A stretch of DNA of 64,000 nt from Deltaproteobacteria bacterium (GTDB lineage: Bacteria > Desulfobacterota > Binatia > Binatales > Binataceae), in assembly GCA_021801125.1 (NCBI GenBank), contig JAJYYI010000119.1, positions 20,191 to 84,190 of the forward strand, read 5' to 3'. The translations under genes were made by a program, and so were the position numbers. Shown here in pieces: positions 42,352-64,000 of this stretch. Position 1 is the stretch's first letter. Each line of letters opens with the position of its first letter. A model generated the notes under the pieces. That model saw nothing but the letters and a program-made list of their open reading frames with translations. It ran no database searches and had not been told where the DNA came from.

Positions 42352-42430
42352 TTTTCCACTGACGCGGCGCGCCAGGGCAACCCGCGTGCCGCAAGACGCG
42401 GCGCCAGGCGGCCGGCTCAAGGGCATTACA

Positions 42431-47519: not shown

Positions 47520-47593
47520 GCGCCCGTAGCTCAACTGGACAGAGCATCGGACTTCGGATCCGAGGGTTAGGGGTTCGAATCCCTTCGGGCGCG
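47520..47593 (+). tRNA. tRNA-Arg (anticodon UCG)
   Basis: Folded by hand into a 74-nt cloverleaf. Acceptor stem GCGCCCG/CGGGCGC. D arm GCTC-AACTGGACA-GAGC. Anticodon stem TCGGA/TCCGA with loop CTTCGGA, giving anticodon TCG. T arm AGGGG-TTCGAAT-CCCTT. Discriminator G; no encoded CCA. Confidence 0.85.
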
Positions 47594-47817: not shown

Positions 47818-49152
47818 ATGACGGCAAGGAAAGAGATTGCTTCCCCGAAGACCAGTTGTAGGTGCCTGCTGTTTTCGCTGGTGCTGGCGCTCTTTGCGAT
47901 GGCGCCCGGTTCGTTGCGCGCCCAAGGCTCGTCGTCGAGCGGGTTAACGATTCAGCGATTTGAGCCCACGCCGATAAGGGTCAAACTTAGCGATCTGCCA
48001 CCACCGTTTGCGACGCCAAGCGCCGGACAGCCGCCGCGGGTTGTTTCCACGCCTGGCGATCCGGCCTTGCAGTTGCCGGCGGGCTTCAGCGTAAGCGTCT
48101 ATGCCGAGGCGATGCCGGATGGACAGCCGCTGCATCAGCCGCGCTGGTTAGCGCTCACCCCTGACGGTTCCGTGCTCGTCACGGAAACGGAAAAACATCG
48201 CATTCGCATTCTGCGTGACCCGCGCCATGAAGGTCACGTTACCGAAAGTCGGATCTTCGGTGATCGTGAGAACGGACTGGAAGCGCCCTTCGGAATGGTC
48301 TTCGTGGACAAGTACTTCTACGTCGCAAACGCCGACGGCATCCTGCGGTTTCCTTATACCGCGGGACAGTTGCAGCTTTCAGGCAAGGGCGAGAAAATCG
48401 CCTCACTGCCTGGCTACGGCGGCCATTGGACGCGCAATCTTCTACTGGCGCCGGACGGGAAGCACCTGTACGTCGCGATCGGTTCGCGCTTCAACGTCGG
48501 CGTTGAAAAGCTGCCACGGGCCTCGGTGCAAATCATCAATCTGGACGGTTCGGACATGAAGACAGTCGCCTCGGGGCTTCGCAACCCAGTGGGCATGGAT
48601 CTTAACCCACACACCGGCGAGCTTTACGTCGTAGTGAACGAACGCGACGGGATGGGCGACAACTTGGTTCCCGATTATTTTACGAGGATCGAGCAGGACG
48701 CCTTCTACGGCTGGCCATTCGCTTACCTCTCACCGTCGCTGATCGACCCGCGCATGACCAAGGATGGTAAGAGCTTACGTCCCGACCTGGTCGCGAAGAC
48801 AACCACACCGGATGTTTTATTCCAAGCGCATTCCGCAACGCTCGGCCTGGCCTTTTATCGCGGCAAGACATTTCCAGAGCCATACCGAAACGGAGCCTTC
48901 GTGACCCTGCACGGAAGCTGGAATCGAAGCATCGGCACCGGGTATAAAATTGTCTTTGTACCGTTTGGGGAGAATAACCGGCCTTTGGGGTATTACCAGG
49001 ATTTCTTAACCGGGTTCATTCTCGATGCCAAAGAGCCGGCAGTGTGGGGCCGTCCGACGGGGATCCTTTCGATGCCGGATGGAAGTTTGCTTTTTACCGA
49101 CGACGGCAACAACCGGATTTACCGAGTCCAGTACGGAGCTGCGCCCACTTAG
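47818..49152 (+). CDS. PQQ-dependent sugar (sorbosone/aldose) dehydrogenase, beta-propeller, secreted
   Basis: Signal peptide, then blocks typical of the soluble sGDH/sorbosone dehydrogenase family (PDGSVLVTE, HWTRNL..APDG, GLRNPVGMD, NERDGMGDNLVPDY, FYGWP). Confidence 0.8.
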   Translation: MTARKEIASPKTSCRCLLFSLVLALFAMAPGSLRAQGSSSSGLTIQRFEPTPIRVKLSDLPPPFATPSAGQPPRVVSTPGDPALQLPAGFSVSVYAEAMPDGQPLHQPRWLALTPDGSVLVTETEKHRIRILRDPRHEGHVTESRIFGDRENGLEAPFGMVFVDKYFYVANADGILRFPYTAGQLQLSGKGEKIASLPGYGGHWTRNLLLAPDGKHLYVAIGSRFNVGVEKLPRASVQIINLDGSDMKTVASGLRNPVGMDLNPHTGELYVVVNERDGMGDNLVPDYFTRIEQDAFYGWPFAYLSPSLIDPRMTKDGKSLRPDLVAKTTTPDVLFQAHSATLGLAFYRGKTFPEPYRNGAFVTLHGSWNRSIGTGYKIVFVPFGENNRPLGYYQDFLTGFILDAKEPAVWGRPTGILSMPDGSLLFTDDGNNRIYRVQYGAAPT

Positions 49153-49317
49153 GCTTGTCCCCGGGGCCGACCATCCGACGAAGACCGGCGTTAACGGAAG
49201 GCCCCTGATAATACGAGCTCGCGTCGCAGGCAGCGTGATCGCACGCCCCCAGAAGCATTTGACTTCGGGCGATTAGATACCAAACGTCACCGTCACAGTG
49301 CGCGTGGAGAAACCCAG

Positions 49318-50298
49318 ATGAACAGCAAAGCGATCAGGGTTCACGAAAACGGCGGACCTGAGGTTCTTAAGTGGGAAGATGTGAGCGTGCCCGAACCGGG
49401 ACCCGGTGAGGCGCGCGTTCGGCATACCGCGATCGGCCTCAACTTTGTAGAGATATACTTCAGAATGGGCCTTTATCCGCCGCCTCATCTGCCTTACACC
49501 CCGGGGACCGAGGCAGCGGGGGTGGTGGAGGCCGTGGGGCCTGACGTCACCGAAGTTCGCGTTGGAGATCGCGTTGCATATTGCGGCGGCCCGTTCGGCG
49601 CCTATTCAGAGGTGCGCGTGATGCCGGCGAAATTTCTCGTCCCCTTGCCGGAAGGTATAGACGAGGCCACGGCGGCGGCTTCGATGCTCAAGGGCCTCAC
49701 CAGTCAATACCTGCTTTTCTCTACGTATCAGGTCAAACGCGGCGAGACGATCCTAGTTCACGCCGCTGCCGGCGGTGTTGGCCTGATTCTTTGCCAGTGG
49801 GCTAAGCATCTGGGCGCCACGGTGATCGGAACCGTGGGCAGCGAGGACAAAGCGCGCCTGGCGGCGCAACACGGCTGTGACCAGACCATTCTCTACCACA
49901 AGGAAGACTTCGTTGCCCGCGTGCGGGAGTTAACCGGCGGCAAGGGAGTGCCTGTGGTGTATGACTCGGTCGGCCAGGCGACCTTCATGGGCTCGCTGGA
50001 TTGCCTACAGCCGCGGGGGCTGATGGTGAGCTATGGTCAGGCCTCTGGCGTTGTGCCGCCGTTCAACGTCGGTATCCTGAGCGCTAAAGGCTCGCTCTAT
50101 CTCACACGGCCAACCCTGGTTACCTACGTAGCCGAGCGCGACGAACTGCTCGGCCGAGCGCGCGCGTTGTTCGATGTCTTGACCCGGGGAATCGTGCGTT
50201 GCGAAGTGCGTCAGCGCTTTAAGCTCAAGGATGCCGCCGAGGCCCATCGCGCTCTGGCGGGCAGACAGACCACGGGTTCAAGCCTCCTCATACCGTAG
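49318..50298 (+). CDS. qor: NADPH:quinone oxidoreductase (zeta-crystallin/MDR family)
   Basis: 326 aa with GLNFVEIYFRMGLYP, PGTEAAGVV, HAAAGGVGL and the C-terminal TTGSSLLIP typical of Qor. Confidence 0.85.
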   Translation: MNSKAIRVHENGGPEVLKWEDVSVPEPGPGEARVRHTAIGLNFVEIYFRMGLYPPPHLPYTPGTEAAGVVEAVGPDVTEVRVGDRVAYCGGPFGAYSEVRVMPAKFLVPLPEGIDEATAAASMLKGLTSQYLLFSTYQVKRGETILVHAAAGGVGLILCQWAKHLGATVIGTVGSEDKARLAAQHGCDQTILYHKEDFVARVRELTGGKGVPVVYDSVGQATFMGSLDCLQPRGLMVSYGQASGVVPPFNVGILSAKGSLYLTRPTLVTYVAERDELLGRARALFDVLTRGIVRCEVRQRFKLKDAAEAHRALAGRQTTGSSLLIP

Positions 50299-50772
50299 CG
50301 CGCCGTCGCCACGACCGTCCAAGGGCAAGCCGCAACCGCTCGAGATCGACACGGCGCCGTTGCGCGGGGATTTTCTTGGAGATTACGCGGCGAGGCCGGC
50401 GCCATACGCAGGCCGCAGCCTGAGCGCGACCCGCTCTCGTGAGTTTCGTAACGCCTGCGCGGCGCATTGCCTCAGCGGCGTGGCACCTGCGGATTGAATT
50501 TCATCCGTTGCGCAAAAGCATAAGTTTCCGAGCAAAGGAAACACCGTTTTCCAGCACATTAAGCGCTCTCCCGCAGCGCTTCGACGCTGGTGTTCGGGCG
50601 CGAAACCGCGGTAAGGTCAGCGCCATCTCCCCATACTACGGGCGGAAAGTGGGCCGCTCGACGGCACCTGCACAAAATCGACGCAATAAAGTACCGTTTA
50701 GGGTTGCGGGACCATTGCGTGTCTGGTTGAATACATATGCAAATTTTCGGCCTAAGGGGGAGGACACCACCT

Positions 50773-52572
50773 ATGAGAGGCGAAAGAGGTACCGTGCGCT
50801 TTTGGTTTAGCGTTGTGCTCGGACTCCTGCTTTTAACGCCGCTAGGGACGGCGGCGCGGGCTGACGACTCTCTTGAAAGCATGGCGCAAGACCCGAACCA
50901 GTGGGTGATGCCGGGTCGGGATTACTCGCTCACGCGTTATAGCCCACTCAAACAGATAAATACGGACAACGCCAAAGACCTAAAGGTCGCATGGACGATG
51001 TCCACTGGAGCGCTGCGCGGCCATGAGGGCCAACCGCTCGTGATCGGCGACATGCTTTACTTCGAGAGCGCCTATCCCAATTTCGTATACGCGGTTAACC
51101 TCAGCGACCCCGGCCGAATCGTCTGGAAGTTTGTCCCGCATCAGGACTCGTTTGCGCCGTCCGTAGCGTGCTGCGACGTGGTGAATCGCGGACCGGCATA
51201 CGGCGACGGCAAGCTGATCGTCAACACCCTCGACGGGCACGTCTACGCGCTTGACGCCAAGGACGGGCACGTTGTGTGGGCCGCGCAAAATGCGGAGCCC
51301 AAGATGGGCCAGACGATGACCAACGCGCCTTTGGTCGTGCGCGATAAGGTTATCGTCGGCGTGTCCGGCGGTGAGTATGGCGTGCGCGGTTACGTCACCG
51401 CGTATGACCTCAGCTCGGGCAAGCGCGTCTGGCGCGCTTACAGCGAAGGACCTGACTCAGACCTCCTCTTCGACCCGGAGAAAACGATCGACGGAGCTAC
51501 TCAAAAGCCGGTCGGCAGAAACTCCAGCACAAAGACCTGGCGTGGCGACGCTTGGAAGCTCGGTGGCGGCACGACCTGGGGTTGGTATTCATACGATCCT
51601 AAGCTGAACCTCTTCTACTATGGCTCCGGCAACCCTGGGACCTGGAACCCGAGCCAGCGCCCCGGCGACAACAAGTGGTCGATGACCATTTTTGCACGTG
51701 ACCCGGACACCGGTCAGGCTCGCTGGGTCTACCAAATGACGCCGCATGACGGTTGGGACTATGACGGGATCAACGAGATGGTTCTCGCCGACCTCGACGT
51801 GAACGGCACCAGCACTCCAACGCTGGTACATTTCGACCGCAACGGGTTTGCATACGTGGTCAACCGCGAGAACGGCAAGCTGGTCGCGGCCCACAAGTAC
51901 GATCCGACGGTTAACTGGGCAACCGAAGTCAACCTCGAGACCGGACGTCCTCAGGTGAATCCGGCTTACATGACCAAGCAGGACGTCAACGTGAAGGGAA
52001 TCTGCCCTTCGGCCCAGGGCGACAAAGACCAACAGCCGGTCTCCTTCGACCTCGACACCAAGCTGTTCTATGCCCCGCTGAATCACCTCTGCATGGACTA
52101 CCAGGGATTCGCGGTCAAATATAAGGCCGGCTTCCCGTTTGTCGGCGCCATCGTCAATATGTTCCCGGCCGAGGGTGGCAACCGCGGACGCTTCATCGCT
52201 TTCGACCCGGTTTCAGGTCAGGCGAAGTGGGAAATCAAAGACACGTTCCAGGATTGGGGCGGCGCTCTGACGACGGCCGGCGGCTTGGCCTTCTACGGAA
52301 CGCTGGACGGTTGGTTCAGGGCGGTCGACAAAAAGACGGGTAACGTGCTCTATCAGTTCCATTGCCCCTCGGGGATCATCGGCAATCCGATCACCTTCAT
52401 GCATAATGGCAAGCAGTATGTTGCCATCCTGAGCGGTGTGGGAGGATGGTCCGCAATCGGTCTGGCCGAAGGCTTGGCTGAGCCCACCGCGGGTCTCGGC
52501 GCGGTCGGTCTGACCGCCTCGCTTAAGGATTACACCAGTCTGGGCGGCACCCTCTTGGTGTTCTCGCTGTAA
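50773..52572 (+). CDS. xoxF: XoxF-type (lanthanide-dependent) PQQ methanol/alcohol dehydrogenase
   Basis: Start taken at ATG 50773 (GGGGGAGG RBS). Near-collinear with XoxF sequences I know, including the QWVMPGRDY, GALRGHEGQPLV and TWGWYSYDP blocks. Vicinal CC at 51169..51174. The motif WDYDG has its second Asp at 51763..51765. Confidence 0.9.
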   Translation: MRGERGTVRFWFSVVLGLLLLTPLGTAARADDSLESMAQDPNQWVMPGRDYSLTRYSPLKQINTDNAKDLKVAWTMSTGALRGHEGQPLVIGDMLYFESAYPNFVYAVNLSDPGRIVWKFVPHQDSFAPSVACCDVVNRGPAYGDGKLIVNTLDGHVYALDAKDGHVVWAAQNAEPKMGQTMTNAPLVVRDKVIVGVSGGEYGVRGYVTAYDLSSGKRVWRAYSEGPDSDLLFDPEKTIDGATQKPVGRNSSTKTWRGDAWKLGGGTTWGWYSYDPKLNLFYYGSGNPGTWNPSQRPGDNKWSMTIFARDPDTGQARWVYQMTPHDGWDYDGINEMVLADLDVNGTSTPTLVHFDRNGFAYVVNRENGKLVAAHKYDPTVNWATEVNLETGRPQVNPAYMTKQDVNVKGICPSAQGDKDQQPVSFDLDTKLFYAPLNHLCMDYQGFAVKYKAGFPFVGAIVNMFPAEGGNRGRFIAFDPVSGQAKWEIKDTFQDWGGALTTAGGLAFYGTLDGWFRAVDKKTGNVLYQFHCPSGIIGNPITFMHNGKQYVAILSGVGGWSAIGLAEGLAEPTAGLGAVGLTASLKDYTSLGGTLLVFSL

Positions 52573-52633: not shown

Positions 52634-52932
52634 GCTAATAGGGAATTTCAGCGCTCAGCGGCAAGTTCCCAATGCTTTCACGACCAGCTTGGCTCACGTT
52701 GCGCGCGGCAGCCAGCATGGTTTTTGCGACCGCACCCGCGGCATCGTTTGCTCGCCGCGCGACCGTACGCCAGAGATGCAAACGCCAGAGGCCCGGACCA
52801 GCGTCAGCACTCCCGCGCCTTGATAATTTGCCTGGCGAATTTTGTGCCTGATGCGCAAACCATGGCGGGCGCTTCTCCGCACCTTCGGGGCTATAATCTT
52901 ACCCAAGGATTTAAGAAGTGACGGAGGCGCTA

Positions 52933-53766
52933 ATGAACCGTCGAATATTGAGAACAACCCCAGGATTGGCGATGCTCATCGCCGCAGGCGTTATCTTGAG
53001 CGCCGCGAGGCTTAACGCACAGGCGCTGCGAGTGTGCGCTGATCCGGACTATTTACCCTTTTCGGACCAAGCTGGCCAGGGACTGGAAAACAAGCTGGCC
53101 GCGTTGGCCGCCAAGGCTCTTGGCGACAAAGTGGAGTACACCTGGGCCAGCTATCGGGGTCCGGGCGGTTTTGACGGGTTCCTATACCAAACGCTCAATG
53201 CAAAGAAATGCGACGTAGTGATGGAAATTCCTTACGGGTACGCACAAGTGCTGAGTACCAAGCCGTACTACGTCTCTTCCTACGTTTTCGTTTATAGGAA
53301 AAACAAGGACTACGACATCCAGAGCATGGATTCTCCGATTCTGCGCAAGCTCAAAATCGGGTTCGAGAGTGAAACCCCGCCGGAAATGGGGCTGAAAATC
53401 CGCGGCTTGGTGCAGACGGCGACTCCTTTCGATATCGGCGATAAAGCCGGCGAATCACCGGCGCTGATGCTGAACCAGGTGCAAGACGGCAAGCTGGATG
53501 TCGCGATTACATGGGAACCTGCAATAGGTTACTTCCTCCCTCATTACCCGGACCTACAAGTTGTGGCGGTGCCCAACGAGCGCGCCCTCGGCGCACCTGA
53601 GCAATACGCGTTTCCCGTTTCCATGGGCGTACGCCAGGGCGACGAGGCTTTGAAGAACCGGCTCGATGACGTCATCTCGAAGCACGAAAGTGAAATAACC
53701 GCGCTACTCGCGAATTTCGGCGTCAAGCTTTACAAACCTAACGTGCCTGGTGCTGTAAGCTATTGA
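52933..53766 (+). CDS. xoxJ: XoxJ/MxaJ-like periplasmic binding protein associated with quinoprotein dehydrogenases
   Basis: ATG 52933 with a GGAGG RBS and a signal peptide. LRVCADPDYLPFS and the family-3 SBP fold pattern match MoxJ-type proteins. Sits between xoxF and xoxG. Confidence 0.8.
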   Translation: MNRRILRTTPGLAMLIAAGVILSAARLNAQALRVCADPDYLPFSDQAGQGLENKLAALAAKALGDKVEYTWASYRGPGGFDGFLYQTLNAKKCDVVMEIPYGYAQVLSTKPYYVSSYVFVYRKNKDYDIQSMDSPILRKLKIGFESETPPEMGLKIRGLVQTATPFDIGDKAGESPALMLNQVQDGKLDVAITWEPAIGYFLPHYPDLQVVAVPNERALGAPEQYAFPVSMGVRQGDEALKNRLDDVISKHESEITALLANFGVKLYKPNVPGAVSY

Positions 53767-53810
53767 TAACTCAACACATCGGCGATTTGAAAGGGGCGAC
53801 GTTTGCTTGG

Positions 53811-54578
53811 ATGAAGACGACGATCTGGGGGATGGTTAATGCGGCCGTGTGTCTAGCGGTGCTCCTCGGCACCGGACTTGTCGCGGCCAGAGCACTGGTA
53901 CAAGCCGCGGAGGCCGAGAGCGCTCAAGCGGCTGGTGACGCGCCAAAGATGATGCATGAAAGCGACTGCTTTTCCTGCCATAGCGTGGACAAAAAAGTCG
54001 TTGGACCGGCGTTCTCGGCGGTAGCCGCACGATACTCCGGCAAGCCCGACGCTGTTTCGAAGTTAGTCGAGAAGGTGAAAAACGGCGGGGCTGGCAACTG
54101 GGGTGATATCCCCATGCCGCCGCATCCCCAGTTCACCGACGCGCAGCTAAAGACGATCGTCGAATGGGTGCTGGCGCAAAATTCGAAAGCCGCGCCAGCG
54201 GCCGCGCCGGCGAACGGTGCGAAGACGTATAACTACAAATTGCCCGACGGTCGCACGCTCGCCTTGCACTTTCCCGTGTTTTCCAACGGCGACCACGTGA
54301 CTAGCAGCGTTTTTAAGGGCTGGGAAAAGTTCAACTCCTACTGCTTTCGCTGCCACGGCACCGACGCGGTCGGCAGTGAGTACGCGCCGGACTTGCGGCA
54401 TTCGCTGGAGAGCGGCATGACCAAGAGCCAGTTCATCACCGTCATGATGGAGGGCGTGCCGGACAAAGGGATGCCCAAGTGGTCTGGATTCTTCGACCCG
54501 GATGATGCCGACGAGATCTATCAATACGTGAAGGCGCGAAGCGTGGGCTTGGTCAAACCCGGACGTCCGAGTGAATAG
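53811..54578 (+). CDS. xoxG: di-heme cytochrome c: N-terminal c551/c552-like domain fused to XoxG/cL-like domain
   Basis: Start taken at MKTTIWG (ATG 53811). First haem motif CFSCH (53967..53981) lies in a segment closely resembling Pseudomonas c-551 (VVGPAFSAVAARYSG..KNGGAGNWGDIPMPPH). Second motif CFRCH (54342..54356) lies in a methanol-dehydrogenase cytochrome cL/XoxG-like segment. Confidence 0.75.
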   Translation: MKTTIWGMVNAAVCLAVLLGTGLVAARALVQAAEAESAQAAGDAPKMMHESDCFSCHSVDKKVVGPAFSAVAARYSGKPDAVSKLVEKVKNGGAGNWGDIPMPPHPQFTDAQLKTIVEWVLAQNSKAAPAAAPANGAKTYNYKLPDGRTLALHFPVFSNGDHVTSSVFKGWEKFNSYCFRCHGTDAVGSEYAPDLRHSLESGMTKSQFITVMMEGVPDKGMPKWSGFFDPDDADEIYQYVKARSVGLVKPGRPSE

Positions 54579-54632
54579 CTGGACAGGTTTTACTTGAGCG
54601 AAAGTTGGTCAACCAACCTTGTGCCATAGCGC

Positions 54633-54661
54633 TTGACAGGGGGTTCAGAACCGGCGAGAAT
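54633..54661 (+). promoter_or_regulatory. sigma-70-like promoter upstream of pqqA
   Basis: TTGACA (54633..54638), a 17-nt spacer, then GAGAAT (54656..54661), about 70 nt upstream of the pqqA ATG. Confidence 0.4.
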
Positions 54662-54732
54662 GTCGGGTAATCGCCACACCGATCCGCTCGGTGGGCGTGT
54701 CAGTATCAATTCGATACGGAGGGGAGACGAGC

Positions 54733-54807
54733 ATGGAATGGACTAAACCCACCTTTGAAGACCTGCGTCTTGGCTTCGAGCTGACTCTTTACATCTTTAA
54801 TCGCTAA
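54733..54807 (+). CDS. pqqA: PQQ precursor peptide PqqA
   Basis: Not in the ORF track (24 codons). MEWTKPTFEDLRLGFELTLYIFNR has the conserved W-x-x-P N-terminus and the E16-x3-Y20 cross-link pair. GGAGGGGAG RBS; lies directly upstream of pqqBCDE. Confidence 0.9.
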   Translation: MEWTKPTFEDLRLGFELTLYIFNR

Positions 54808-54813
54808 GGAACT

Positions 54814-54854
54814 GGGCTAGGGGGCGTCCAAGTTCCCCTAGCCCGTTTCTTTTT
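54814..54854 (+). terminator. rho-independent terminator/attenuator immediately after pqqA
   Basis: Perfect 10-bp stem GGGCTAGGGG / CCCCTAGCCC with an 11-nt loop, followed by GTTTCTTTTT. Confidence 0.65.
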
Positions 54855-54959
54855 CAGCTTTTGGGGAGACACCTTAGGCAAGCCTCCTAGAGAGGCGGTG
54901 CCCGTAAAAGTGTTAGCGCGTTCGTCTTAACGCGCGGGCGCCGCAAACTCACCACCACC

Positions 54960-55874
54960 GTGATTGTCCGAGTACTCGGCTCCGCTGCTGGAGGAGGCTT
55001 CCCGCAATGGAACTGCAACTGCTCGAACTGCTCGGGCCTCCGCAAGGGTTTAATCAAGGCGCAGCCGCGCACCCAGTCGTCGGTGGCCGTTAGCGATAAC
55101 GGCAAGACTTGGGTTATTATTGACGCTTCGCCCGATATCCGCACCCAAATAGAGGGATTCGCGCCCTTTCAGCCTGGGCGAGCCGTCAGAGACACGGCGA
55201 TCGCCGGGGTAGTGTTGGTCGATAGCCAGATTGACCACGCAACCGGACTGCTCTTTTTGCGCGAGGGAAAACCGCTCCACGTCTACTGCACGGACATGGT
55301 CTATGAGGACTTGACCACTGGGTTTCCTGTCCTGAATATGCTCGCTCATTATTGCGGCGTGCAGCGCCATCGAATCGAAGTCAACGGAGACGGCGAATTT
55401 GCGATACCCGACTTGCCGGGCGTGCGCTTTGTCGCGGTGCCTTTGGACAGCAAGGCCCCGCCCTACTCCCCCCATCGGCATAATCCCCATATCGGCGATA
55501 CGATAGGCGTCTTGCTCGAGGACCGACAGAGCGGGAAACGCCTTCTTTATGCGCCAGCGCTGGGCCGAGCGGAGCCGCGAGTGCTCGCCCTGATGGAACA
55601 GGTCGACTGCGTGCTTACGGACGGCACTTGCTGGCGTGACGACGAGCTGCAGTTGGCGGGAATCTCGAACAGGCGCGCGACCGAGATGGGCCATTTGCCC
55701 CAATCAGGTCCGGGTGGAATGATAGAGGTCATGCGCGGAGTGAAAAGACCGCGTAAAGTGCTGACGCATATAAACAACACCAACCCTATCCTGCGCGACG
55801 ACTCGCCGGAGCGGGCCCAGCTCACCGTCGAGCACATCGAGGTCGCCTTCGATGGAATGGAGATAGCGCTTTAG
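54960..55874 (+). CDS. pqqB: PQQ biosynthesis protein PqqB (MBL fold)
   Basis: [24 protein letters not shown] is the hallmark PqqB N-terminus; 304 aa. Confidence 0.92.
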
Positions 55875-55897
55875 TTCACACGGCGCGACGAACGGAC

Positions 55898-56626
55898 ATG
55901 ACAATGGCCGTAGCACCTCCGTGGAGCAAAGAAGAGTTCGAGCAAAAGCTGCGAGAGCGCGGCGCCGCCTACCACATTCATCATCCGTATCACGTGATGA
56001 TGAACGAAGGACGCCTGAACCGGGAGCAGGTGCAAGGCTGGGTAGCCAACCGCTTCTACTATCAAATCAACATACCGCGCAAGGACGCCGCGATTCTGGC
56101 TCAATGCCCTGATCGGGAAGTGCGCCGGCACTGGATCAAGCGGATCGTCGACCACGACGGCAAAGAAGGCGACCAGGGCGGGATTGAGGCTTGGATAAAA
56201 CTTGGCGAGGCATGCGGCCTGGAGCGAGACGAGATAGTGTCGCTGCGCCGCGTATTGCCGGGCGTGCGCTTTGCGGTTGACGCTTACGTCAATTTTGCCC
56301 GAACAGCACCGTGGCAGGAAGCAGTGTGCGCTTCGCTGACGGAACTTTTCGCGACCAACATTCATCGGGTGCGCCTGGAAAATTGGCCGCGCCATTACCC
56401 TTGGATCGATCCCCGCGGCTACGATTACTTTCGACGCCGGATAACCGAGGCTTCGCAGGATGTTGAGTACGGGCTCGAGGTAACGCTAGCGCACTTCACC
56501 ACGCGCGAATTGCAGGAGCGCGCGCTGGAAATCTTGCAGCTCAAGCTGGACATTCTGTGGTCGATGCTTGACGCGATGTACGTGGCTTACGTGGACAAAA
56601 TCCCGCCCTCTCGCGGGATGCGCTAA
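55898..56626 (+). CDS. pqqC: pyrroloquinoline-quinone synthase PqqC
   Basis: 242 aa with [23 protein letters not shown] and [12 protein letters not shown] blocks. Confidence 0.95.
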
Positions 56627-56635
56627 CGGCACGCC

Positions 56636-56920
56636 ATGGCGGTCTTCGACCCGGACACGATTCTGGCGATCTCAAATAAGTTTCGCTTGCAGTGGGAAGC
56701 CGCGCAGCAGGCCTATGTTCTGCTTTACGCGGAGGGCATGATAAAACTTAATGTGAGTGCCGGCGAGGTGCTCAAGCGGCTCGACGGACAGCGAACTTTG
56801 GCCGCCGTAATTGAGGATCTCCAGCGCCAATTCCCAAACGCCGCGCTCGAAGATGACGTGCGGGAATTTGTGAACATCGCCCATGACCACGGATGGATTA
56901 TCGTCAAGCAGCCCACCTAA
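56636..56920 (+). CDS. pqqD: PqqA-binding chaperone PqqD
   Basis: 94 aa. [32 protein letters not shown] fits PqqD/RRE proteins. Sits between pqqC and pqqE. Confidence 0.9.
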
Positions 56921-58040
56921 ACCCTTGTGGTTGTGCGCTGAGTTGACTTACTCCTGCCCGCTTCAGTGCCCTTACTGCTCGAATCCGATTGATTTCTCCA
57001 GGCAACGGGACACGCTCAAGACCGAAGATTGGAGTCGCGTCCTCAAAGAGGCTCGAGCGATGGGCGCGGTCCAGCTTGGGTTCTCGGGTGGAGAGCCGCT
57101 CTTGCGCCGCGACCTGGAGGACTTGGTTGCCGAGGCGCGACATCTCGGATACTACACCAACCTCATTACCTCAGCCGCGGGCCTTGGCGAGCCACGGCTT
57201 AAAGCCCTGAAGGAAGCCGGGCTGGACCACATTCAGATAAGCTTCCAGGCGGGTTCGCAGGCGCTCAACGACTTCATGGCTGGCACCAGAATCTTCGAGC
57301 ACAAGCTTGCCGCAGCGCGTCTGGTCAAGCAGTACGGCTATGACATCGTGCTGAACTTCGTCGTCTATCGGGACAACATCGATCAGATCGGCCAGATGCT
57401 TGATATGGCGGGCGAGGTCGGCGCGGATTACGTTGAGTTGGCGAATGTGCAGTACTACGGCTGGGCGCTCTTGAATCGCGACCGTTTGTTGCCGACGCGA
57501 GAGCAGCTTTCCCGCGCCGAAGCGATTGCGCACCAATACCAGGAACGCTGGAAGGGACGCATGCGCATACTCTACGTTATTCCGGACTATTATGAAGAGC
57601 GCCCCAAAGCGTGCATGAGCGGATGGGGCAGTATCTTTCTGACCGTCGCGCCCGACGGCGTGGCGCTGCCGTGCCAGGCCGCCCGTCAACTCCCGGGGAT
57701 CGAATTTCCCAACGTGCGCGACCATAGCGTCGAGTGGATATGGAACGAATCGCCTGCCTTCAACAAGTTTCGCGGCTTTGACTGGATGAAAGAGCCGTGC
57801 CGCAGCTGCCCCGACCGGTTCAAAGACTACGGCGGATGCCGATGCCAGGCCTACATGCTCACCGGCGACGCCGGCAACACAGACCCGGTCTGCAGCCTTT
57901 CCCCACGCCATGACGTCATCCTGTCTGCGATATCCTCGGCTAACGCCGCGGCCGAACGCGGCAACGGCGCGCGCGAGCCTGGACAAGGCGAGGGTCCAAT
58001 CTTCCGCAACGTTCGCAACTCCTCCAAGCTGAGCGCCTGA
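56883..58040 (+). CDS. pqqE: radical SAM/SPASM enzyme PqqE
   Basis: [22 protein letters not shown] (CxxxCxxC), GFSGGEPL and the C-terminal SPASM cysteines ([19 protein letters not shown]). Overlaps pqqD by 38 nt. Confidence 0.93.
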
Positions 58041-58050
58041 GGCTGCCTCG

Positions 58051-59073
58051 ATGGCTCTCCCCGCGCTGCTCAGAACGGCCAAGGCCGTCTTGAGTTCGGA
58101 GCCGGTGCGACAGAGCTTGCCTGAAACGGGGCTTGAGAGGAGCGCTAACGCCCTGCGCGCTCAAGGCCTTGCCAAGCATTTCGGCGAGCTTAAAGCCGTC
58201 GACGGAATTGACCTGCAGGTCGGTCAAGGCGAGCTTTTCGGGCTCCTGGGCCCCAACGGCTCGGGTAAGACCACCACGATCCACATGCTCACCACCTTGA
58301 CGCGGCCGACGCTCGGCAGCGCGACCGTGGCAGGCTTTGATGTTTGCGCCGACCCGGTGTCGGTCAGGCGGCAAATCGGTCTGGTCTTTCAGGAGTCCGC
58401 CCTGGATCGCAACCTGACCGTCGCGGAGAATCTCCATTTCGCCGCCGCGTTATACATGATGCCGCTTGCGCTGGCGCGGCTGCGGACTAACGAGTTGTTG
58501 CGCGTTTTCAACCTCGAGGCCAAGCGCGACGTGCCGGTCGGCAGGCTGTCGGGAGGTATGCGTCGCGCCGTGGACGTGGCGCGCGGCGTGCTTCATCGTC
58601 CGCGGGTGCTTTTTCTAGATGAGCCTACGCTCGGGCTCGACCCGATCAATCGCCAAGCTTTGTGGCAATTCATCGCACGGCTTCGGCGCGAAGAGCAAAT
58701 CACGGTGCTCATCACGACGCACTATCTCGAGGAAGCCACCGCCTGCGACCAGGTCGCCTTTCTTAACGCGGGCAGAATAATCGGGCGCGGCACGCCGGGG
58801 TATCTGATCAAAGAGCTGGGCGCGTATGTGCTCGATATCGAGGGCCCGGATTCCGACCAGATCGCGGCGCGCTTCGAGCCGCGTTTCGGCGCCGGACTCA
58901 AGACGCACGGCAAGGTGAGCTTTCGCGTCGCGGAGGAGCATTTCTCGATCAGCCGCCTCGAAGCGGAAATCGATCCGCGCGTACAAGCGATGCATCTGCG
59001 CCGTCCGGACTTAAACGATGTCTACCTCTGGCTGATACACGGAAGATTAGGTCATAAGGAGCAGGGGAGCTGA
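58051..59073 (+). CDS. ABC transporter ATP-binding protein (ABC-2/DrrA-type exporter ATPase)
   Basis: GPNGSGKTT, LSGGMRRAVDVARG, LFLDEPTLGLD and a C-terminal DrrA-like extension. Begins 10 nt after the pqqE stop. Confidence 0.85.
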   Translation: MALPALLRTAKAVLSSEPVRQSLPETGLERSANALRAQGLAKHFGELKAVDGIDLQVGQGELFGLLGPNGSGKTTTIHMLTTLTRPTLGSATVAGFDVCADPVSVRRQIGLVFQESALDRNLTVAENLHFAAALYMMPLALARLRTNELLRVFNLEAKRDVPVGRLSGGMRRAVDVARGVLHRPRVLFLDEPTLGLDPINRQALWQFIARLRREEQITVLITTHYLEEATACDQVAFLNAGRIIGRGTPGYLIKELGAYVLDIEGPDSDQIAARFEPRFGAGLKTHGKVSFRVAEEHFSISRLEAEIDPRVQAMHLRRPDLNDVYLWLIHGRLGHKEQGS

Positions 59074-59879
59074 TGTGGCGTCCGTTGTGCGCGATCATCG
59101 AGCGTGAGCTCAAATGGACCGTGCGCCAGCGGGGCCGGTTGGTCAGCGCGATGGTGCGCCCGCTGCTATGGCTGCTGACCGTCGGCGTGGGTTTCGAGGC
59201 GATGCTGCGCGAGACGGGCTCTGGCAACTACCGCGCGTTTCTGGTGCCGGGATTGCTGGCGATGGTCCTGCTGTTCGGCGCGATGCTCGCGTCGCTCTCG
59301 ATGGTCTATGACCGCGAATCGGGCGTGCTGCGCATGCTGATCATCGCTCCGTTCGCGCATGGGTGGATTGTCGTGGCGCGATGGATCAGCGCAACGCTTG
59401 TGGGATTGGTGCAGGCGGCTATGCTGCTGGTGCTGCTGGGCGTGTTGGGATATTTGAGCGGCGATATTTCAGTGGGCCTGCTGGCCGTGGGGCTCGTCGC
59501 CACCTCGATGGCATGCGCGTCGATCGGCATTCTGATCGCCGTATGGACCCGAGCGCTAGACAACTTCGCGGTGGTGATGAACTTCGTCATTTTTCCGGTG
59601 TTTTTCCTGAGCGGCGCGCTCTATCCCGTCCAGCACCTGCCAAGCTGGCTCAAAATAGTCGCGGCGGTAAACCCGTTCAGTTACGGCGTCGACCTGCTCA
59701 AGCATGCGACGGTTACAGAATCCGCGTCTTTGTTCGGCGCTGACTTCGCTTTAGGCGTCGACCTGTTGGTACTCGCGGCGTTTACGGCCGTCGCGGTCGT
59801 CGTCGCGGTAATCAGGTTCTCGCAAGATTCCGTTTTGGAGTCCTTCGCGCGATGGCTTAGCGACGGGCGGACGCACTAG
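59073..59879 (+). CDS. ABC-2-type transporter permease
   Basis: 268 aa with 6 hydrophobic segments. The N-terminal ERELKWTVRQRGRL motif is typical of ABC-2 permeases. Its start overlaps the ATPase stop (TGATG). Confidence 0.8.
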   Translation: MWRPLCAIIERELKWTVRQRGRLVSAMVRPLLWLLTVGVGFEAMLRETGSGNYRAFLVPGLLAMVLLFGAMLASLSMVYDRESGVLRMLIIAPFAHGWIVVARWISATLVGLVQAAMLLVLLGVLGYLSGDISVGLLAVGLVATSMACASIGILIAVWTRALDNFAVVMNFVIFPVFFLSGALYPVQHLPSWLKIVAAVNPFSYGVDLLKHATVTESASLFGADFALGVDLLVLAAFTAVAVVVAVIRFSQDSVLESFARWLSDGRTH

Positions 59880-59981
59880 ACCGGTTCGGCGGGATTCGTT
59901 TCTTACCCTGGCGCGGCGGTTCTTTGGTCGGGCATCTGTCAGCACCGGGCGCATTGGCCACGTAGGCGGCGGGGAATCTCG

Positions 59982-62786
59982 TTGCGAAGCGAAGTATCGA
60001 AACTGCTCGCCTCAAGCCTACGCTCGATCGACATTCCGTGCGCGCGGTTCGTGCTGGACAACGGCCTGCGCGTGCTCATATCCAACCGCCCGGGCCCCGG
60101 TCAGGTCGGCGTGAACGTCTGTTACCACGCCGGGTCGAGCGCCGAATCACCGGGTAAATCCGGCCTTGCTCACCTCGTCGAACATCTGATGTACGCCGGC
60201 ACCGAGCATCACCCGCAAAGCTACGTGCCGGCACTGGAGCAAATCGGCGCAACGACGATAAACGCTGACGCCACCGAGGACTTCAGCACTTATTTCGAAA
60301 CCGTGCCCGCAGGCGCGCTCGATCTGGCGCTGTGGATGGAGGCCGAGCGAATGGGATGCCTCTCTCGCGCGATCGACCAGGCCAAATTGGAGCGCGAGCG
60401 CGAGGTTATCCGCGGCGAGATACTTCAGCGCGAAAACGAACCTTTCGGCGGGGTCAAGCGGCTCATTCGCGCGCATTCGTATCCCGCAGGCCATCCTTAC
60501 CAGCGCGTCGCGTTGGGCTCGATCGAGGAACTGGAGGCCCTCACGCTCGACGACGTCCATCAATGGCTCGCCAGCTTTCACAGCCCGGCCAACGCGTTGC
60601 TCGTCGTCGGCGGCGCCGCGGCTCCGCGATCGGTCATCGCTCGTATCAAGCACTTTTTTGGCGCCTTGGCGGCGGACGCTGCCCCGAGCCGCCACGGACC
60701 CCCACCCCGGCTCGCGCCGTTTGCCGAGCGCAAAACAGCGCTTATTACTCATTCGAGGGGTGGCGCGCGCGTTTATAAGGTTTGGAACATCCCGCCATGG
60801 ACTCATCCCGACCATGCGGTTATAGAGCTAGCGGCGAATATTCTGGCGGCGGGCGCGGATTCGATATTGGGGGAGCGTCTGATCAGGTCGCGGGGGATTG
60901 CAACCCAAATCGGTTTCGAGATCGGCGAAAACGAGTTGGGCTCGCAGCTCATAGCTTATGCTGACGCGAGGTCGGAGGCTCTATCCGGCGATCTAGCCGA
61001 GACAATCGATCAAGAAATCGCGCGCTTCTTGAGCAGCGAGCCGTCGCCAGAGGTGTTCGACGCAGCACGCATGGCGCTGATACGGAGCGCGCTTCAAGCC
61101 CTTGAGTGTTTGACTGGCCCGAAGAGTCTGACGCGCGCCCTCGTGATGAGCGAGCTTCTGGCCGCAAATCCAGCTTTTTTTCATGAGCGCCTCACGAAGA
61201 TTGCCGAGGCCGGCCCGGACGCTGTGCTTTCCTGCGCAGCCCGTTGGCTCGGTGGCAGCGTGTTTACGTTGGCGGCGCTGCCGTCGGCGACGCCGCCTCT
61301 AGCGGAATCGGCAAACGCCCGTCGCGCAGCGCGGCCGCGCGCTGCTGTGCCAAGTGGGAAGCCCCAGGCGTGGAGGGCTACCCCATGCGGCTTGCCGTCC
61401 GTGATCACCGCGGACGCGCTCGAAGCGCGCCTGCCCGCGCTGAAGGCGATGACCCTCGGAAACGGGCTTAGCCTTTTGCTCGCGGAGCGTCCGGGCGCGG
61501 CGACCGCGAACGTACGAATGGTTTTGCGGAGTTCGATGCGCGCTGAGCGCGCTTGGCGTCCCGCAAGCTGCGGGATCGCCGGTTTCGCCGCAGCCATGCT
61601 TGCCGAGGGCCACACGGAGCGGCGACCCGGAAAGATCAATGCTCCGTTTAGGATGCTCGGCGCAGAGTTCCGAGGTCGTACAGGATTGGATACCGCAACC
61701 TTGGAACTTTCGGGACTGAACTTTAACCTCGCCCCAGCCCTGGAACTGCTGGCCGAAATCACGTCGAATCCCAGATTCGAGCCCGGCGACGTTCGTCCGT
61801 TGAAACTGCGGCGCCTCGCGGAGATCGAGCACGAGAAGGCGCACCCGTTTGATTTCGCGCTGCGAACGATGCCGCGTCTGGTCTTTGGCGAGGGCCATCC
61901 GTATGCGCAGCCGCTATCCGGTCTGGGCTGCTCTTCATGCATCGAAGCGCTGACGCCCGGCGATCTCGCCGACTTCTACTGCCGATGGGCGCGGCCCGAC
62001 CGGACGGCGCTGGTGGTGGTCGGCGACCTTGACTCTCGCTCGCTGCGTTCAGCGATCGAAAGGGCTTTCAGAGCTTGGGGCCCGCATACCGGCGCAGCTA
62101 GAGCACTCGCTATCGCGCCGGACGTCGTGAGCGGCAAACCCGCCGCGCCCGGTGTTATCTTCACCGTAAACCGACCTGGCCAGACTCAATCCGCAATCAC
62201 CGTTGGATGGCCCGTCTCGTCCCTGAGTGTTGCCGACGAGGCCGCATTTCTTTTGGCTCGCGCGCTTGCGGCGGATATGTTCAGTTCACGGCTGAATCTC
62301 CTGCTGCGCGAGCAGATGAACTGCAGCTACGGCGTGCGCTGCCTTAGCGCGCACGCTGAGGGTGGCGGGCTTTGCTTGATTCACGCGTCAGTGCGAGCCG
62401 ACATGACCGGGGCTGCGCTGCGAGAAGTAAGGCGCATCCTGGCCGAGCTTTGCGCGGACAGCGGGGTATCGACGGCGGAGGCGACCAGGGCGCGGACCTA
62501 CGTCAGAGCCAGATTGGTGGCGTTCTCGGAGAGCGGTAGTCAAACCGCACAGGCGGCCGAGCAGATCGTTGCTCGCGCGCTCGACGCGGATTATTACCAG
62601 CAGCTCTCGGACCGGCTTCAGACTGTCAAGCCGGAGGAGATCGTTCACGCTGCGCGCACGATCTTGAACCCCAGCGGCGCAACCTGGCTTCTCGCGGCGG
62701 ATATGAACGTTGTCGCCGAGCAACTGCGCGACCAAGGACAGGTGATTAGGTCGCTCGAGAGCGGTGACCAGCACGTTGCCCCCTGA
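59982..62786 (+). CDS. single-chain double-unit M16 (pitrilysin/insulinase) zinc peptidase, PqqF/PqqG-like by context
   Basis: 934 aa. The first M16 unit has HLVEH (60171..60185) and a downstream glutamate block (EREREVIRGEILQRENE). The second unit (from about residue 490) lacks HxxEH. No hydrophobic signal peptide is visible at the N-terminus. TTG start is uncertain. Confidence 0.85.
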   Translation: MRSEVSKLLASSLRSIDIPCARFVLDNGLRVLISNRPGPGQVGVNVCYHAGSSAESPGKSGLAHLVEHLMYAGTEHHPQSYVPALEQIGATTINADATEDFSTYFETVPAGALDLALWMEAERMGCLSRAIDQAKLEREREVIRGEILQRENEPFGGVKRLIRAHSYPAGHPYQRVALGSIEELEALTLDDVHQWLASFHSPANALLVVGGAAAPRSVIARIKHFFGALAADAAPSRHGPPPRLAPFAERKTALITHSRGGARVYKVWNIPPWTHPDHAVIELAANILAAGADSILGERLIRSRGIATQIGFEIGENELGSQLIAYADARSEALSGDLAETIDQEIARFLSSEPSPEVFDAARMALIRSALQALECLTGPKSLTRALVMSELLAANPAFFHERLTKIAEAGPDAVLSCAARWLGGSVFTLAALPSATPPLAESANARRAARPRAAVPSGKPQAWRATPCGLPSVITADALEARLPALKAMTLGNGLSLLLAERPGAATANVRMVLRSSMRAERAWRPASCGIAGFAAAMLAEGHTERRPGKINAPFRMLGAEFRGRTGLDTATLELSGLNFNLAPALELLAEITSNPRFEPGDVRPLKLRRLAEIEHEKAHPFDFALRTMPRLVFGEGHPYAQPLSGLGCSSCIEALTPGDLADFYCRWARPDRTALVVVGDLDSRSLRSAIERAFRAWGPHTGAARALAIAPDVVSGKPAAPGVIFTVNRPGQTQSAITVGWPVSSLSVADEAAFLLARALAADMFSSRLNLLLREQMNCSYGVRCLSAHAEGGGLCLIHASVRADMTGAALREVRRILAELCADSGVSTAEATRARTYVRARLVAFSESGSQTAQAAEQIVARALDADYYQQLSDRLQTVKPEEIVHAARTILNPSGATWLLAADMNVVAEQLRDQGQVIRSLESGDQHVAP

Positions 62787-62882
62787 CATGCGGCAACTGC
62801 CCGGCCGGGAGGCCGCAACCCCACGCATCGCACGCGCTCGAATCGACCCGGCGGTTTGGCGCGTTTACCCGCGCCGCTGAGA

Positions 62883-63272
62883 CTACGTGCCCCGCGGGTA
62901 ATCCGCCTTTGCCGGAATGACGTGCCGCACTCCGCCGCGCGGCTGTGGATGGTCGCCGCGATATCGCGGAATCAAATGAATGTGGACGTGGAAGATGCTC
63001 TGCCCGGCCGCCGCCCCCACGTTCACTCCAACATTATAGCCGTCGGGGCTCAGCTCCTCGGCCAAACCGTTTCGCTGAGCCGCAAGAAGCTCCATGCAAG
63101 CGGCGACCTCATCAGGCGACAGGTCGAAGAAATCGGCGCAATGGCGTAGCGGGATTATCAGCGTGTGCCCCCGGCTGACCGGGTACGAGTCGCGCGTCGC
63201 ATAGGCTAATTCGTTGCGCCCGCATATTTCGCGCGGCGCGCAGAACAAGCACGGATTGTTAGGGTCCCTCAT
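62883..63272 (-). CDS. HIT-family (histidine triad) nucleotide hydrolase/transferase
   Basis: 129 aa with the HVHIHLIPR histidine triad. ATGA overlap with the upstream gene. Confidence 0.85.
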   Translation of the reverse strand: MRDPNNPCLFCAPREICGRNELAYATRDSYPVSRGHTLIIPLRHCADFFDLSPDEVAACMELLAAQRNGLAEELSPDGYNVGVNVGAAAGQSIFHVHIHLIPRYRGDHPQPRGGVRHVIPAKADYPRGT

Positions 63273-64000
63273 TTCGCCAAATCTGAAGCGTCCGCGACCA
63301 ATCCGCGCGCGTTAAGCTGCGAGCGCGCGTAAAGCATCGCGGTCGTCCGGTAGACCAGGTGCCCGAATTTAGAATAGGGCAGGTATACCAAGAGGAAGAA
63401 CACGAGCGTTAGATGGACGAAATATGTCGGATACGCCAGCGCCGCGAGGTCGGCCAGCCGCAGGGATTCGCACGCGAACCCGGTAAACACAGCCAGCGCC
63501 AGAATGATGAGAAAGAGCCAGTCGGCGTATGTGCTCTTGCCGGCCCGCGCCTGTTCGCCAATCCGATGCCAGAAGAACACGGCTAGTCCGACCACGAGCG
63601 CCGTCCCGCTAACATTGCCCAGAATCTTAACCGGATGCCACAGCGGCCACGGCGTCAGATAGTCAAAAAAGTGGATTCCGACACCCACCGAAGCGGTGGT
63701 CGCTACCAGGCCGAGAAACCCATAAAAAACCGCAAGATGGGTCTTGTAGAGATGAGTTTGATGAGTCGGACGGCTTCCCACGGGCTCATCGATGCACCGC
63801 TTGAATTGGCCGTGGTCGAGAATCTCCCTAATCACTTGAGCGAGCGCCGTCCAAAAACTGCCGCCGCCGTCGGCGCGCGCGCCGCGCATCGCCGACCAGT
63901 ACCGCGCGCCACCCGCTAACGCGCCCAGGACGGCGAGTCCCACGGCAATATCGAACAGCGCCTCGACGTAGAAATCGGGGAAGAGCTTGGCGAAAACGAT
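63269..64000 (-). CDS. NarI/DsrM/HdrE-like integral membrane redox subunit (partial, N-terminus beyond window)
   Basis: The reading frame stays open from 63943 to the window end (IVFAKLFPDFYVEALFDIAVGLAV..), so the GTG in the track is probably internal. About 5 TM helices with conserved His residues and a C-terminal LPYSKFGHLVYR motif seen in NarI-like domains of QmoC/HmeC-type proteins. Confidence 0.45.
   Translation of the reverse strand: MVFAKLFPDFYVEALFDIAVGLAVLGALAGGARYWSAMRGARADGGGSFWTALAQVIREILDHGQFKRCIDEPVGSRPTHQTHLYKTHLAVFYGFLGLVATTASVGVGIHFFDYLTPWPLWHPVKILGNVSGTALVVGLAVFFWHRIGEQARAGKSTYADWLFLIILALAVFTGFACESLRLADLAALAYPTYFVHLTLVFFLLVYLPYSKFGHLVYRTTAMLYARSQLNARGLVADASDLAK

Follow-up and report, generated by a model that had tools for sequence, protein, structure and literature searches.

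A pqqE-linked ABC-2 transporter and a fused M16 peptidase as putative PQQ exporter and PqqA-processing protease at the 3′ end of a deltaproteobacterial pqq operon

Results

Genes at the 3′ end of the pqq operon

The 64,000-nucleotide (nt) stretch of DNA analysed here, hereafter the window, comes from a Deltaproteobacteria bacterium of the Binataceae (GenBank assembly GCA_021801125.1, contig JAJYYI010000119.1, positions 20,191 to 84,190, forward strand) and carries a pqqABCDE operon for making pyrroloquinoline quinone (PQQ). Three further genes follow pqqE on the same strand: an ATP-binding cassette (ABC) ATPase and an ABC-2 permease, together referred to below as the pump, and a double M16 peptidase. 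An earlier reading of the DNA (the original prediction) had regarded the ABC pair as a candidate exporter of PQQ or of processed peptide, and the M16 protein as a candidate PQQ maturation protease. The features at this end of the operon are the following.

56883-58040, plus strand: pqqE (TIGR02109, 542 bits, cutoff 381)
58051..59073, plus strand: ATPase of the pqq-linked ABC-2 pair, 340 amino acids (aa) (PF00005, 100.7 bits)
59073..59879, plus strand: ABC-2 permease, 268 aa, with about six transmembrane helices by hydropathy (PF01061, 109.2 bits)
59880..59981, plus strand: spacer between the permease and M16 genes, with no terminator-like hairpin and not conserved among orthologues
59982..62786, plus strand: double M16 peptidase with a TTG start, 934 aa (Pfam M16 and M16_C, twice each)
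60171..60185, plus strand: HLVEH zinc-binding motif in the active half of the M16 protein (residues 64-68)

The pqqE gene ends with a TGA at 58040 and the ATPase gene begins with an ATG at 58051, which leaves a gap of 10 nt. The stop codon of the ATPase gene overlaps the start codon of the permease gene by 1 nt in the string cTGATGt (59071-59075), and 102 nt separate the permease from the M16 gene. A terminator scan of the window found no terminator in 58000-62800. In the spacer we looked for a structured RNA or a terminator and found neither: there is no terminator-like site, and the spacer folds no better than shuffled sequence (z = +1.4). The original prediction had described the 10-nt gap, the TGATG overlap, and a same-strand 934-aa M16 gene about 100 nt further on with no terminator hairpin in between, and all of these hold.

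The ABC-2 pair forms a clade of its own

The translated ATPase has intact Walker A (GPNGSGKTT), signature (LSGGMRR) and Walker B (LFLDEPT) motifs and a DrrA-like C-terminal domain; these ABC_tran motifs and the adjoining permease of the ABC2_membrane family (PF01061) place the pair in the ABC-2 transporter superfamily. The start codon at 58051 is supported by the first 11 residues of the protein, MALPALLRTAK/R, which are conserved in four related lineages. Against NCBIfam, the ATPase scored 287 bits with drrA (TIGR01188, cutoff 312) and 214 bits with the PedB-type model TIGR03864 (cutoff 302), and the permease scored 159 bits both with the PedC model TIGR03861 (cutoff 241) and with DrrB (TIGR01247, cutoff 223). 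Because every specific match falls below its cutoff, a curated family assignment for the pump was rejected. Members of the pqq-type clade score 125-177 bits on TIGR03861, as against 375-455 bits for true Ped-type permeases, and the Ped-type ATPase of a Piscinibacter locus (L075) reaches 306 bits on TIGR03864. In a neighbour-joining tree of permeases, the window permease lies in a clade of its own, to which the Ped clade is the sister group. The pump constitutes a distinct family that has no curated NCBIfam model and is defined by its position at the 3′ end of the pqq operon.

Relatives at about 60% identity to the window permease make up a very large set in Gamma- and Betaproteobacteria, and the homologues in a plasmid collection were all of the Ped type. 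The sole permease residues that distinguish the clade, L122, C148 and S250, are uninformative on substrate.

Linkage of the ABC-2 pair to pqqE across species

The first three permease relatives, sampled at random, all adjoin pqq genes. For a broader survey, species representatives (one genome per species) were scanned with a permease alignment as the query, and 80 loci were returned; the window proteins were located in these loci by tblastn and PqqA by motif search, and the permease tree was annotated with gene context. The clade of the window permease, group A, comprises 31 species, 27 of which have readable upstream DNA. Its permeases are 37-100% identical to the window permease, and its hosts are Limnobacter, Methylophaga, Steroidobacteraceae, Burkholderiales, Rhodocyclaceae, Candidatus Entotheonella and the lineage of the window itself.

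The adjacency to pqqE, on which the original prediction had built its case for the pump, proved to be nearly general in this clade: the order pqqE, ATPase, permease is found in 25 of the 27 readable species. One more (L009) has pqqA, ATPase and permease with no pqqBCDE nearby, which brings the species with a pqq gene immediately upstream of the pair to 26, and the last, Methylohalomonas lacus (L012), has neither pqqE nor pqqA upstream. The metagenome loci L005-L007 are further pqq-linked cases. At most group A loci there is no PQQ dehydrogenase within 10 kb, yet pqqE or pqqA is immediately upstream. No gene downstream of the group A pump is conserved across lineages, where lineage-specific synteny blocks are all that occurs, and in many phyla no M16 gene accompanies the ABC pair after pqqE. 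Neither a binding-protein gene (TIGR03863) nor a beta-propeller gene (TIGR03866) lies beside the pqq-type pair, be it in the window (58051-62786) or at the other clade members. The occurrence of the group A pump in unrelated phyla, always with the operon, suggests that operon and pump travel as one functional unit.

The pqqA-only form, which the metagenome locus L005 repeats beside a histidine kinase and a sigma-54 regulator, belongs to a subclade (L005, 6865-8807; L009, 7541-9545; L012, 9054-10786) in which pqqA, ATPase and permease, or in L012 ATPase and permease only, lie away from pqqBCDE. The histidine kinase is divergent and adjoins the pair in both L005 and L012; the sigma-54 response regulator is present in L005 as well. 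In this subclade, precursor and pump may form a module with regulation of its own.

The remaining loci fall into three groups. Group B, a separate actinobacterial branch (L035-L037, about 9020-11690), consists of three Solirubrobacterales/Actinomycetota genomes in which pqqABCDE is followed by an ATPase and two tandem ABC-2 permeases, a heterodimeric form of the pump; the PqqA of these genomes is divergent (MKWTKPAFKTLELASEVTAYRYTR). Group C is of the Ped type, and at many of its loci a PQQ dehydrogenase lies within 10 kb. At one of them, the Piscinibacter locus L075 (2425-9403), pqqABCDE is directly followed by a complete Ped system, with an ATPase (TIGR03864), a beta-propeller protein (TIGR03866), a binding protein (TIGR03863) and a permease (TIGR03861), so that the Ped transporter, to which lanthanide uptake is assigned, can be operon-linked to PQQ synthesis. 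Group D is a related, deltaproteobacterial DrrB-like clade with pqq genes in none of its nine loci, which argues that the pqq linkage is specific to group A.

The M16 protein has one active half and no signal peptide

Membership of the M16 protein in its peptidase family follows from its PF00675 and PF05193 domains and from an HxxEH motif with a downstream Glu. The motif, HLVEH, is present in the N-terminal half only; the second half has no HxxEH and reads GFAAAMLAEGH in the aligned stretch. His64, Glu67, His68 and Glu146 do not vary among 41 homologues. The first beta-strand has no hydrophobic stretch ahead of it, and the model shows residues 4-14 as a helix; the protein lacks a signal peptide, from which a cytoplasmic location is inferred. 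Both properties, one catalytic and one non-catalytic unit and the missing signal peptide, had been read correctly from the sequence in the original prediction.

In the AlphaFold2 model of the protein (predicted local distance difference test score, pLDDT, 89; predicted template modelling score, pTM, 0.90), the four domains form a closed clamshell, and the linker at about residues 440-468 is disordered. The best fold matches of the model by Foldseek are 9ldy (a zinc protease of P. gingivalis), PqqL, FusC and the insulin-degrading enzyme (IDE), and the modelled chamber appears IDE-like and suited to short peptides. Among solved structures, those closest in sequence are two M16B proteins of half the size, 4nnz and 3amj, the latter being the active subunit of a Sphingomonas heterodimer.

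Two family assignments were considered for the M16 protein and rejected. Membership in the PqqF family by profile fails at 47 bits on TIGR02110, against a cutoff of 320. A PqqL/Fus-like import protease, the reading that the original prediction said a functional signal peptide would favour, does not fit a protein that has no signal peptide and whose gene stands among pqq genes, the ABC-2 pair and a HIT gene, without TonB receptor or import ABC genes alongside.

Close homologues are few: P0002-4 are 54-60% identical, after which identity falls to about 33%. Nearly all relatives at 30-35% identity have a clear signal peptide or lipobox. The proteins without one are the window protein, P0002-4, L008, L091 and P0025, which occupy a basal position in a tree where nearly all other members bear signal peptides, and a profile search for further members of this kind added P0246 only. 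The orthologues start at an ATG two codons upstream of the TTG used in the window, where the window has ATC. Around this start (59877-59984), the M16 open reading frame (ORF) is in the reading frame of the permease and the permease TAG is the sole stop between them; this arrangement is probably inconsequential.

The M16 gene is linked to pqq genes in three arrangements

All eight examined members of the signal-peptide-less M16 group lie within two genes of pqqE or the pump, in one of three arrangements. The order pqqABCDE-ABC-ABC2-M16 is shared by the window and the P0002, P0003, P0004 and L008 lineages, of which L008 has a different downstream flank. In L091, the order is pqqBCDE-ABC-ABC2-ZnADH-GFA-M16, with a zinc alcohol dehydrogenase (ZnADH) and a GFA gene in between. 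In L092 and L173, there is no ABC pair, and the order is pqqBCDE-M16-xoxFJG, with only 1 nt between pqqE and the M16 gene in L092. The M16 gene of L173 is split: directly after pqqE (10001-12672) there are two ORFs of 496 aa (the active half) and 431 aa (the inactive half) with a 115-nt overlap, which reflect either a true division of the PqqF/PqqG kind or a frameshift in the assembly.

As a control, we took 80 loci from a metagenome scan with the M16 alignment, which returned signal-peptide-bearing relatives only (at most 33% identity) and no new members; none of the 80 has pqq genes in its flanks. Since pump and protease each occur beside pqqE without the other, they are separate add-ons to the operon rather than a three-gene unit. 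The original prediction had treated exporter and protease as one unit; this part of it does not survive, given the ABC pair without M16 in many phyla and M16 without the ABC pair in L092 and L173.

The PQQ/methylotrophy island

Upstream of pqqE, on the same strand, the window carries the remainder of the operon and genes for a PQQ-dependent methanol oxidation system.

50737..52572, plus strand: xoxF-type PQQ methanol/ethanol dehydrogenase (TIGR03075, 702 bits, cutoff 480; Pfam PQQ domain)
52918..53766, plus strand: XoxJ/MoxJ-like periplasmic protein with a binding-protein fold (TIGR03871, 226 bits, cutoff 212)
53763..54578, plus strand: two-domain c-type cytochrome, XoxG-like (Pfam Cytochrom_C and Cytochrome_CBB3)
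54633..54661, plus strand: sigma-70-like promoter match TTGACA-17-GAGAAT, about 70 nt upstream of pqqA
54733..54807, plus strand: pqqA, precursor peptide of 24 aa, MEWTKPTFEDLRLGFELTLYIFNR, with the E-x3-Y cross-link motif in FELTLY
54814..54858, plus strand: strong GC-rich hairpin with a U-tract directly 3′ of the pqqA stop (-32.3 kcal/mol, z = -3.4)
54960-55874, plus strand: pqqB (from the ORF listing; the pqqB-E block spans 54960..58040)
55898-56626, plus strand: pqqC (from the ORF listing)
56636-56920, plus strand: pqqD (from the ORF listing)

The translated xoxF-type dehydrogenase contains the motif WDYDG, the second Asp of which is a mark of lanthanide-dependent enzymes; XoxF is a periplasmic consumer of PQQ. 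The XoxJ/MoxJ-like gene adjoins few of the pqq-type ABC loci. The promoter match upstream of pqqA is the sole plus-strand match in 54000-64000 and is weak evidence, because the match count is not above shuffle expectation. None of 200 shuffles folds as well as the hairpin 3′ of pqqA, which looks like an attenuator or terminator that would give an excess of pqqA transcript over pqqB-E; the terminator scan missed this hairpin, probably on account of its loop length. The window is best explained as a self-contained island, xoxF-xoxJ-cytochrome c-pqqABCDE, with two independent 3′ accessory modules.

Several neighbouring features were recorded alongside. Downstream of the M16 gene, on the opposite strand, lie genes for a HIT protein and QmoC, where the PQQ/methylotrophy island abuts a HIT-QmoCBA-AprAB-Sat block of dissimilatory sulfur metabolism (62883-64000, minus strand); L002 and L088 have the same genes downstream, and L008 lacks the block and has a CoA-transferase at the same point. 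Upstream of xoxF (47818-50298, plus strand), there is a soluble beta-propeller protein resembling glucose/sorbosone dehydrogenases (PF07995, a PQQ-dependent family) together with a Zn-alcohol dehydrogenase, a pair that is syntenic in the relatives L088 and L090; the beta-propeller protein is a possible second PQQ client in the island. Further upstream (39484-44506, plus strand), a 955-aa fused transaldolase-phosphoglucose isomerase and a transketolase, of the pentose-phosphate or ribulose monophosphate (RuMP) type, are encoded near the methanol-oxidation island. A single tRNA gene (47520-47593, plus strand) is the sole Rfam match at gathering threshold in the 64-kb window. Additional pqqA genes were seen in other genomes: three tandem copies in a gammaproteobacterial metagenome-assembled genome (MAG) (L030, 4657-5279), and, in the betaproteobacterial loci L019, L021, L022 and L029 (about 540-910, minus strand), a further pqqA that is encoded on the other strand and lies roughly 5 kb upstream of the operon’s own copy.

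Discussion

Proposed roles of the pump and the protease

Based on these observations, we propose that: (i) the ABC pair, an ABC-2 (type V) transporter of the homodimer type that has no binding protein, would export PQQ made in the cytoplasm over the inner membrane to periplasmic quinoproteins, a by-product of the PQQ pathway being a less likely cargo, and (ii) the M16 protein is a cytoplasmic single-chain clamshell with one active and one inactive half that would do the job of PqqF or of the PqqF/PqqG pair. The M16 chamber would cut cross-linked PqqA (24 aa) so that PqqB and PqqC can finish the Glu-Tyr unit, and the ABC-2 dimer would carry the resulting PQQ to the periplasm, where XoxF needs it. 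The genes from pqqA through M16 would be expressed together, with the hairpin 3′ of pqqA tuning the ratio of precursor to enzymes. Outward transport is proposed because the pair has no binding protein.

We favour this combined explanation, an exporter of PQQ plus a fused PqqF/G-like protease, by a modest degree of belief, and its parts differ in strength. A functional tie of the pump to the PQQ system is very probable; that PQQ itself is the exported substrate is a putative assignment we regard as close to evenly balanced. For the M16 protein, a role as PqqA-processing protease is putative and reasonably probable. We put forward only tentatively the broader idea that the ABC-2 clade is a dedicated inner-membrane PQQ exporter in a large number of phylogenetically dispersed PQQ producers (Methylophaga, many Burkholderiales, Steroidobacteraceae, Candidatus Entotheonella and some Actinomycetota).

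Alternative explanations

For the pump, the strongest competitor, though in our judgement an unlikely one, takes its cue from the Ped system: the pair would serve metal supply (lanthanide or other) or quinoprotein assembly, and would be linked to pqq genes only through a shared service to XoxF-type enzymes. The PedB/PedC-type models are among the best NCBIfam matches, the Ped clade is the sister group on the permease tree, the window dehydrogenase is a lanthanide-type XoxF, and the literature reports that lanthanide-dependent growth requires PedA1A2BC. To these is added the complete Ped system directly after pqqE in L075. However, the pqq-type clade never occurs with the Ped binding-protein (TIGR03863) or beta-propeller (TIGR03866) gene, most of its loci have pqqE or pqqA immediately upstream and no PQQ dehydrogenase within 10 kb, and ABC-2 transporters without a binding protein, such as DrrAB, NodIJ and Wzm/Wzt, are typically exporters. 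Export of another cargo (leader or follower pieces of PqqA, dead-end products in the form of cross-linked peptides, or reactive quinone intermediates) would make the pump a clean-up or self-protection device as in many clusters for RiPPs, the ribosomally synthesized peptides that are modified after translation. Such clusters commonly end with ABC exporters, the permease scores as DrrB-like, and the pair is linked to pqqA alone in some genomes (L005, L009); yet fragments of PqqA, being short and unmodified, are open to recycling by cytoplasmic peptidases, RiPP peptides are usually exported by fused peptidase-containing ABC transporter (PCAT) or type IV ABC proteins rather than ABC-2, and PQQ is the only product of the pathway known to be needed outside the cytoplasm. 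We regard this cargo as improbable. That the pair is a generic efflux pump for drugs or lipids (DrrAB- or NodIJ-like), unrelated to PQQ, is hardly credible: drrA and drrB are indeed the top or joint-top NCBIfam matches, but all scores lie under the cutoffs, a pqq gene stands immediately upstream in 26 of 27 readable clade species, and the related DrrB-like group D has none in nine loci.

For the M16 protein, the alternative is a general cytoplasmic peptide-degrading enzyme whose proximity to pqq genes is inherited synteny in one lineage, PqqA being cut by other proteases. Its failure on the PqqF model, the variable spacer upstream of its gene and the wider synteny shared by the five lineages with the order ABC-ABC2-M16 would all fit such an enzyme, and many PQQ producers have no dedicated protease, a view also cited in the literature. 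We nevertheless consider it rather unlikely, as the linkage persists through three rearrangements, including direct abutment of pqqE and M16 without the ABC pair, in lineages only 32-33% identical, and as the nearest outgroup family has pqq genes in none of 80 loci.

Several observations speak against the combined proposal. On the side of the pump, adjacency to pqqE shows a link to the PQQ/quinoprotein system and not a transport direction or substrate, because a complete Ped system also follows pqqE in L075. The closest characterised homologue of the pair, PedA1A2BC, is required for lanthanide-dependent growth, and genetics assigns it to lanthanide uptake. A search of the permease for clade-specific charged residues that would hint at an anionic substrate found none. 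According to the literature, the pair is not in the pqq operons of the classic PQQ producers Klebsiella, Pseudomonas and Methylorubrum, and it therefore cannot be a universal route of PQQ export. On the side of the protease, the 47-bit match to TIGR02110 covers residues 22-250 only, and the confirmed pqq linkage comes from a handful of related MAG lineages. A HMMER search listed further double M16 proteins of about 900 aa without a signal peptide, for example P0249 and P0253, beyond the eight whose context was read. The spacer between permease and M16 genes ranges from 100 to 270 nt among orthologues, and since it is variable and not conserved, a separate M16 promoter is possible. The single-chain PqqF+G equivalent envisaged in the original prediction accordingly stands in part: the active and inactive halves, the missing signal peptide and the pqq linkage in three arrangements agree with it, and the PqqF profile score does not.

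Novelty and significance

A full-text search of the searchable literature found no paper with the phrase ‘PQQ export’, and none on an ABC-2 pair downstream of pqqE or on the M16 linkage; key subscription papers lie outside that literature, so an earlier mention is possible. The sole proposal of a PQQ exporter that we found is a speculative remark on META1p2359 of M. extorquens, encoded elsewhere in the genome, and a 2025 paper about the import of PQQ goes no further than the statement that it ‘is transported to the periplasm’. The original prediction’s impression that such an architecture had not been described holds, in the literature searched, for both linkages. It did not take the PedB/PedC homologues into account. 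Each component is a variation on a known kind, the pump on the ABC-2 exporter, with PedBC as its sister, and the M16 protein on PqqF/G, in fused form.

Synthesis of PQQ takes place in the cytoplasm and its use in the periplasm, and the literature searched names no protein shown to be its inner-membrane carrier. If the proposal is correct, the ABC-2 clade supplies this step between cytoplasmic synthesis and periplasmic quinoproteins, for which no assigned protein is known; in that event, the related PedBC pair might also move PQQ or PQQ-metal species rather than free lanthanide, and the result may prompt a re-examination of what the homologous Ped system transports. A two-gene pump at the 3′ end of pqqE in dozens of species is a specific candidate that is directly testable in cultivable Methylophaga, and it could aid the engineering of PQQ overproduction and secretion. 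The fused, signal-peptide-less M16 protein would be a third genomic answer to PqqA processing, beside PqqF and PqqF/PqqG, and its pqq context provides an annotation rule that separates such proteins from their abundant secreted look-alikes.

Comparison with known systems

Among characterised transporters, PedB/PedC (PedA1A2BC of P. putida; TIGR03864/TIGR03861) has the same ABC-2 architecture as the window pair, 37-43% permease identity to it and a sister position in the tree, and likewise occurs in PQQ/quinoprotein neighbourhoods, once directly after pqqE. The window pair differs in that it falls under both cutoffs, has no PedA1 binding protein (TIGR03863) and no PedA2 beta-propeller (TIGR03866), and is tied to pqqE or pqqA, whereas the Ped pair is tied to dehydrogenase genes; lanthanide uptake is assigned to PedA1A2BC, and export is proposed for the window pair. 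DrrAB (TIGR01188/TIGR01247) is also an ATPase plus an ABC-2 permease without a binding protein, aligns over the full length and shares the DrrA-like C-terminal domain, but the window pair stays below the cutoffs (287 vs 312 and 159 vs 223 bits) and lies among wholly different genes. META1p2359 of M. extorquens AM1, which is essential for growth on methanol and has been suggested to export PQQ, is likewise an ABC transporter without a binding protein; unlike the window pair, it is a fused transmembrane-plus-ATPase polypeptide of a different ABC class and is not at the pqq operon.

The M16 protein has the length and four-domain clamshell of two periplasmic double M16 proteases, PqqL of E. coli and FusC of Pectobacterium (Foldseek E = 5e-35 and 2e-33), although it has neither a signal peptide nor TonB receptor or import ABC neighbours, and the sequence match to PqqL is weak (E = 4e-12). 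With PqqF of Klebsiella and Pseudomonas (TIGR02110), it has in common the HxxEH motif of an M16 zinc protease, a place in or beside the pqq operon and a proposed cytoplasmic role in PqqA processing; the match is limited to the N-terminal 230 residues, the window protein is about 170 aa longer, and its relatives are a family of two-unit ‘zinc proteases’ of about 900 aa. In Methylorubrum extorquens, a heterodimer of PqqG and PqqF processes PqqA, according to a review, and this pair also combines one active and one inactive M16 unit, which in the window are fused in one chain whose N-terminal half resembles the active subunits of M16B heterodimers (3amj). The likeness to PqqF/PqqG seen here is one of architecture, and the window gene is at the pqq operon, whereas pqqFG of M. 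extorquens (META1p2330-1) is away from pqqBCDE (1748-50). The split M16 of L173, at the same position after pqqE, mirrors the two-gene PqqF/PqqG arrangement.

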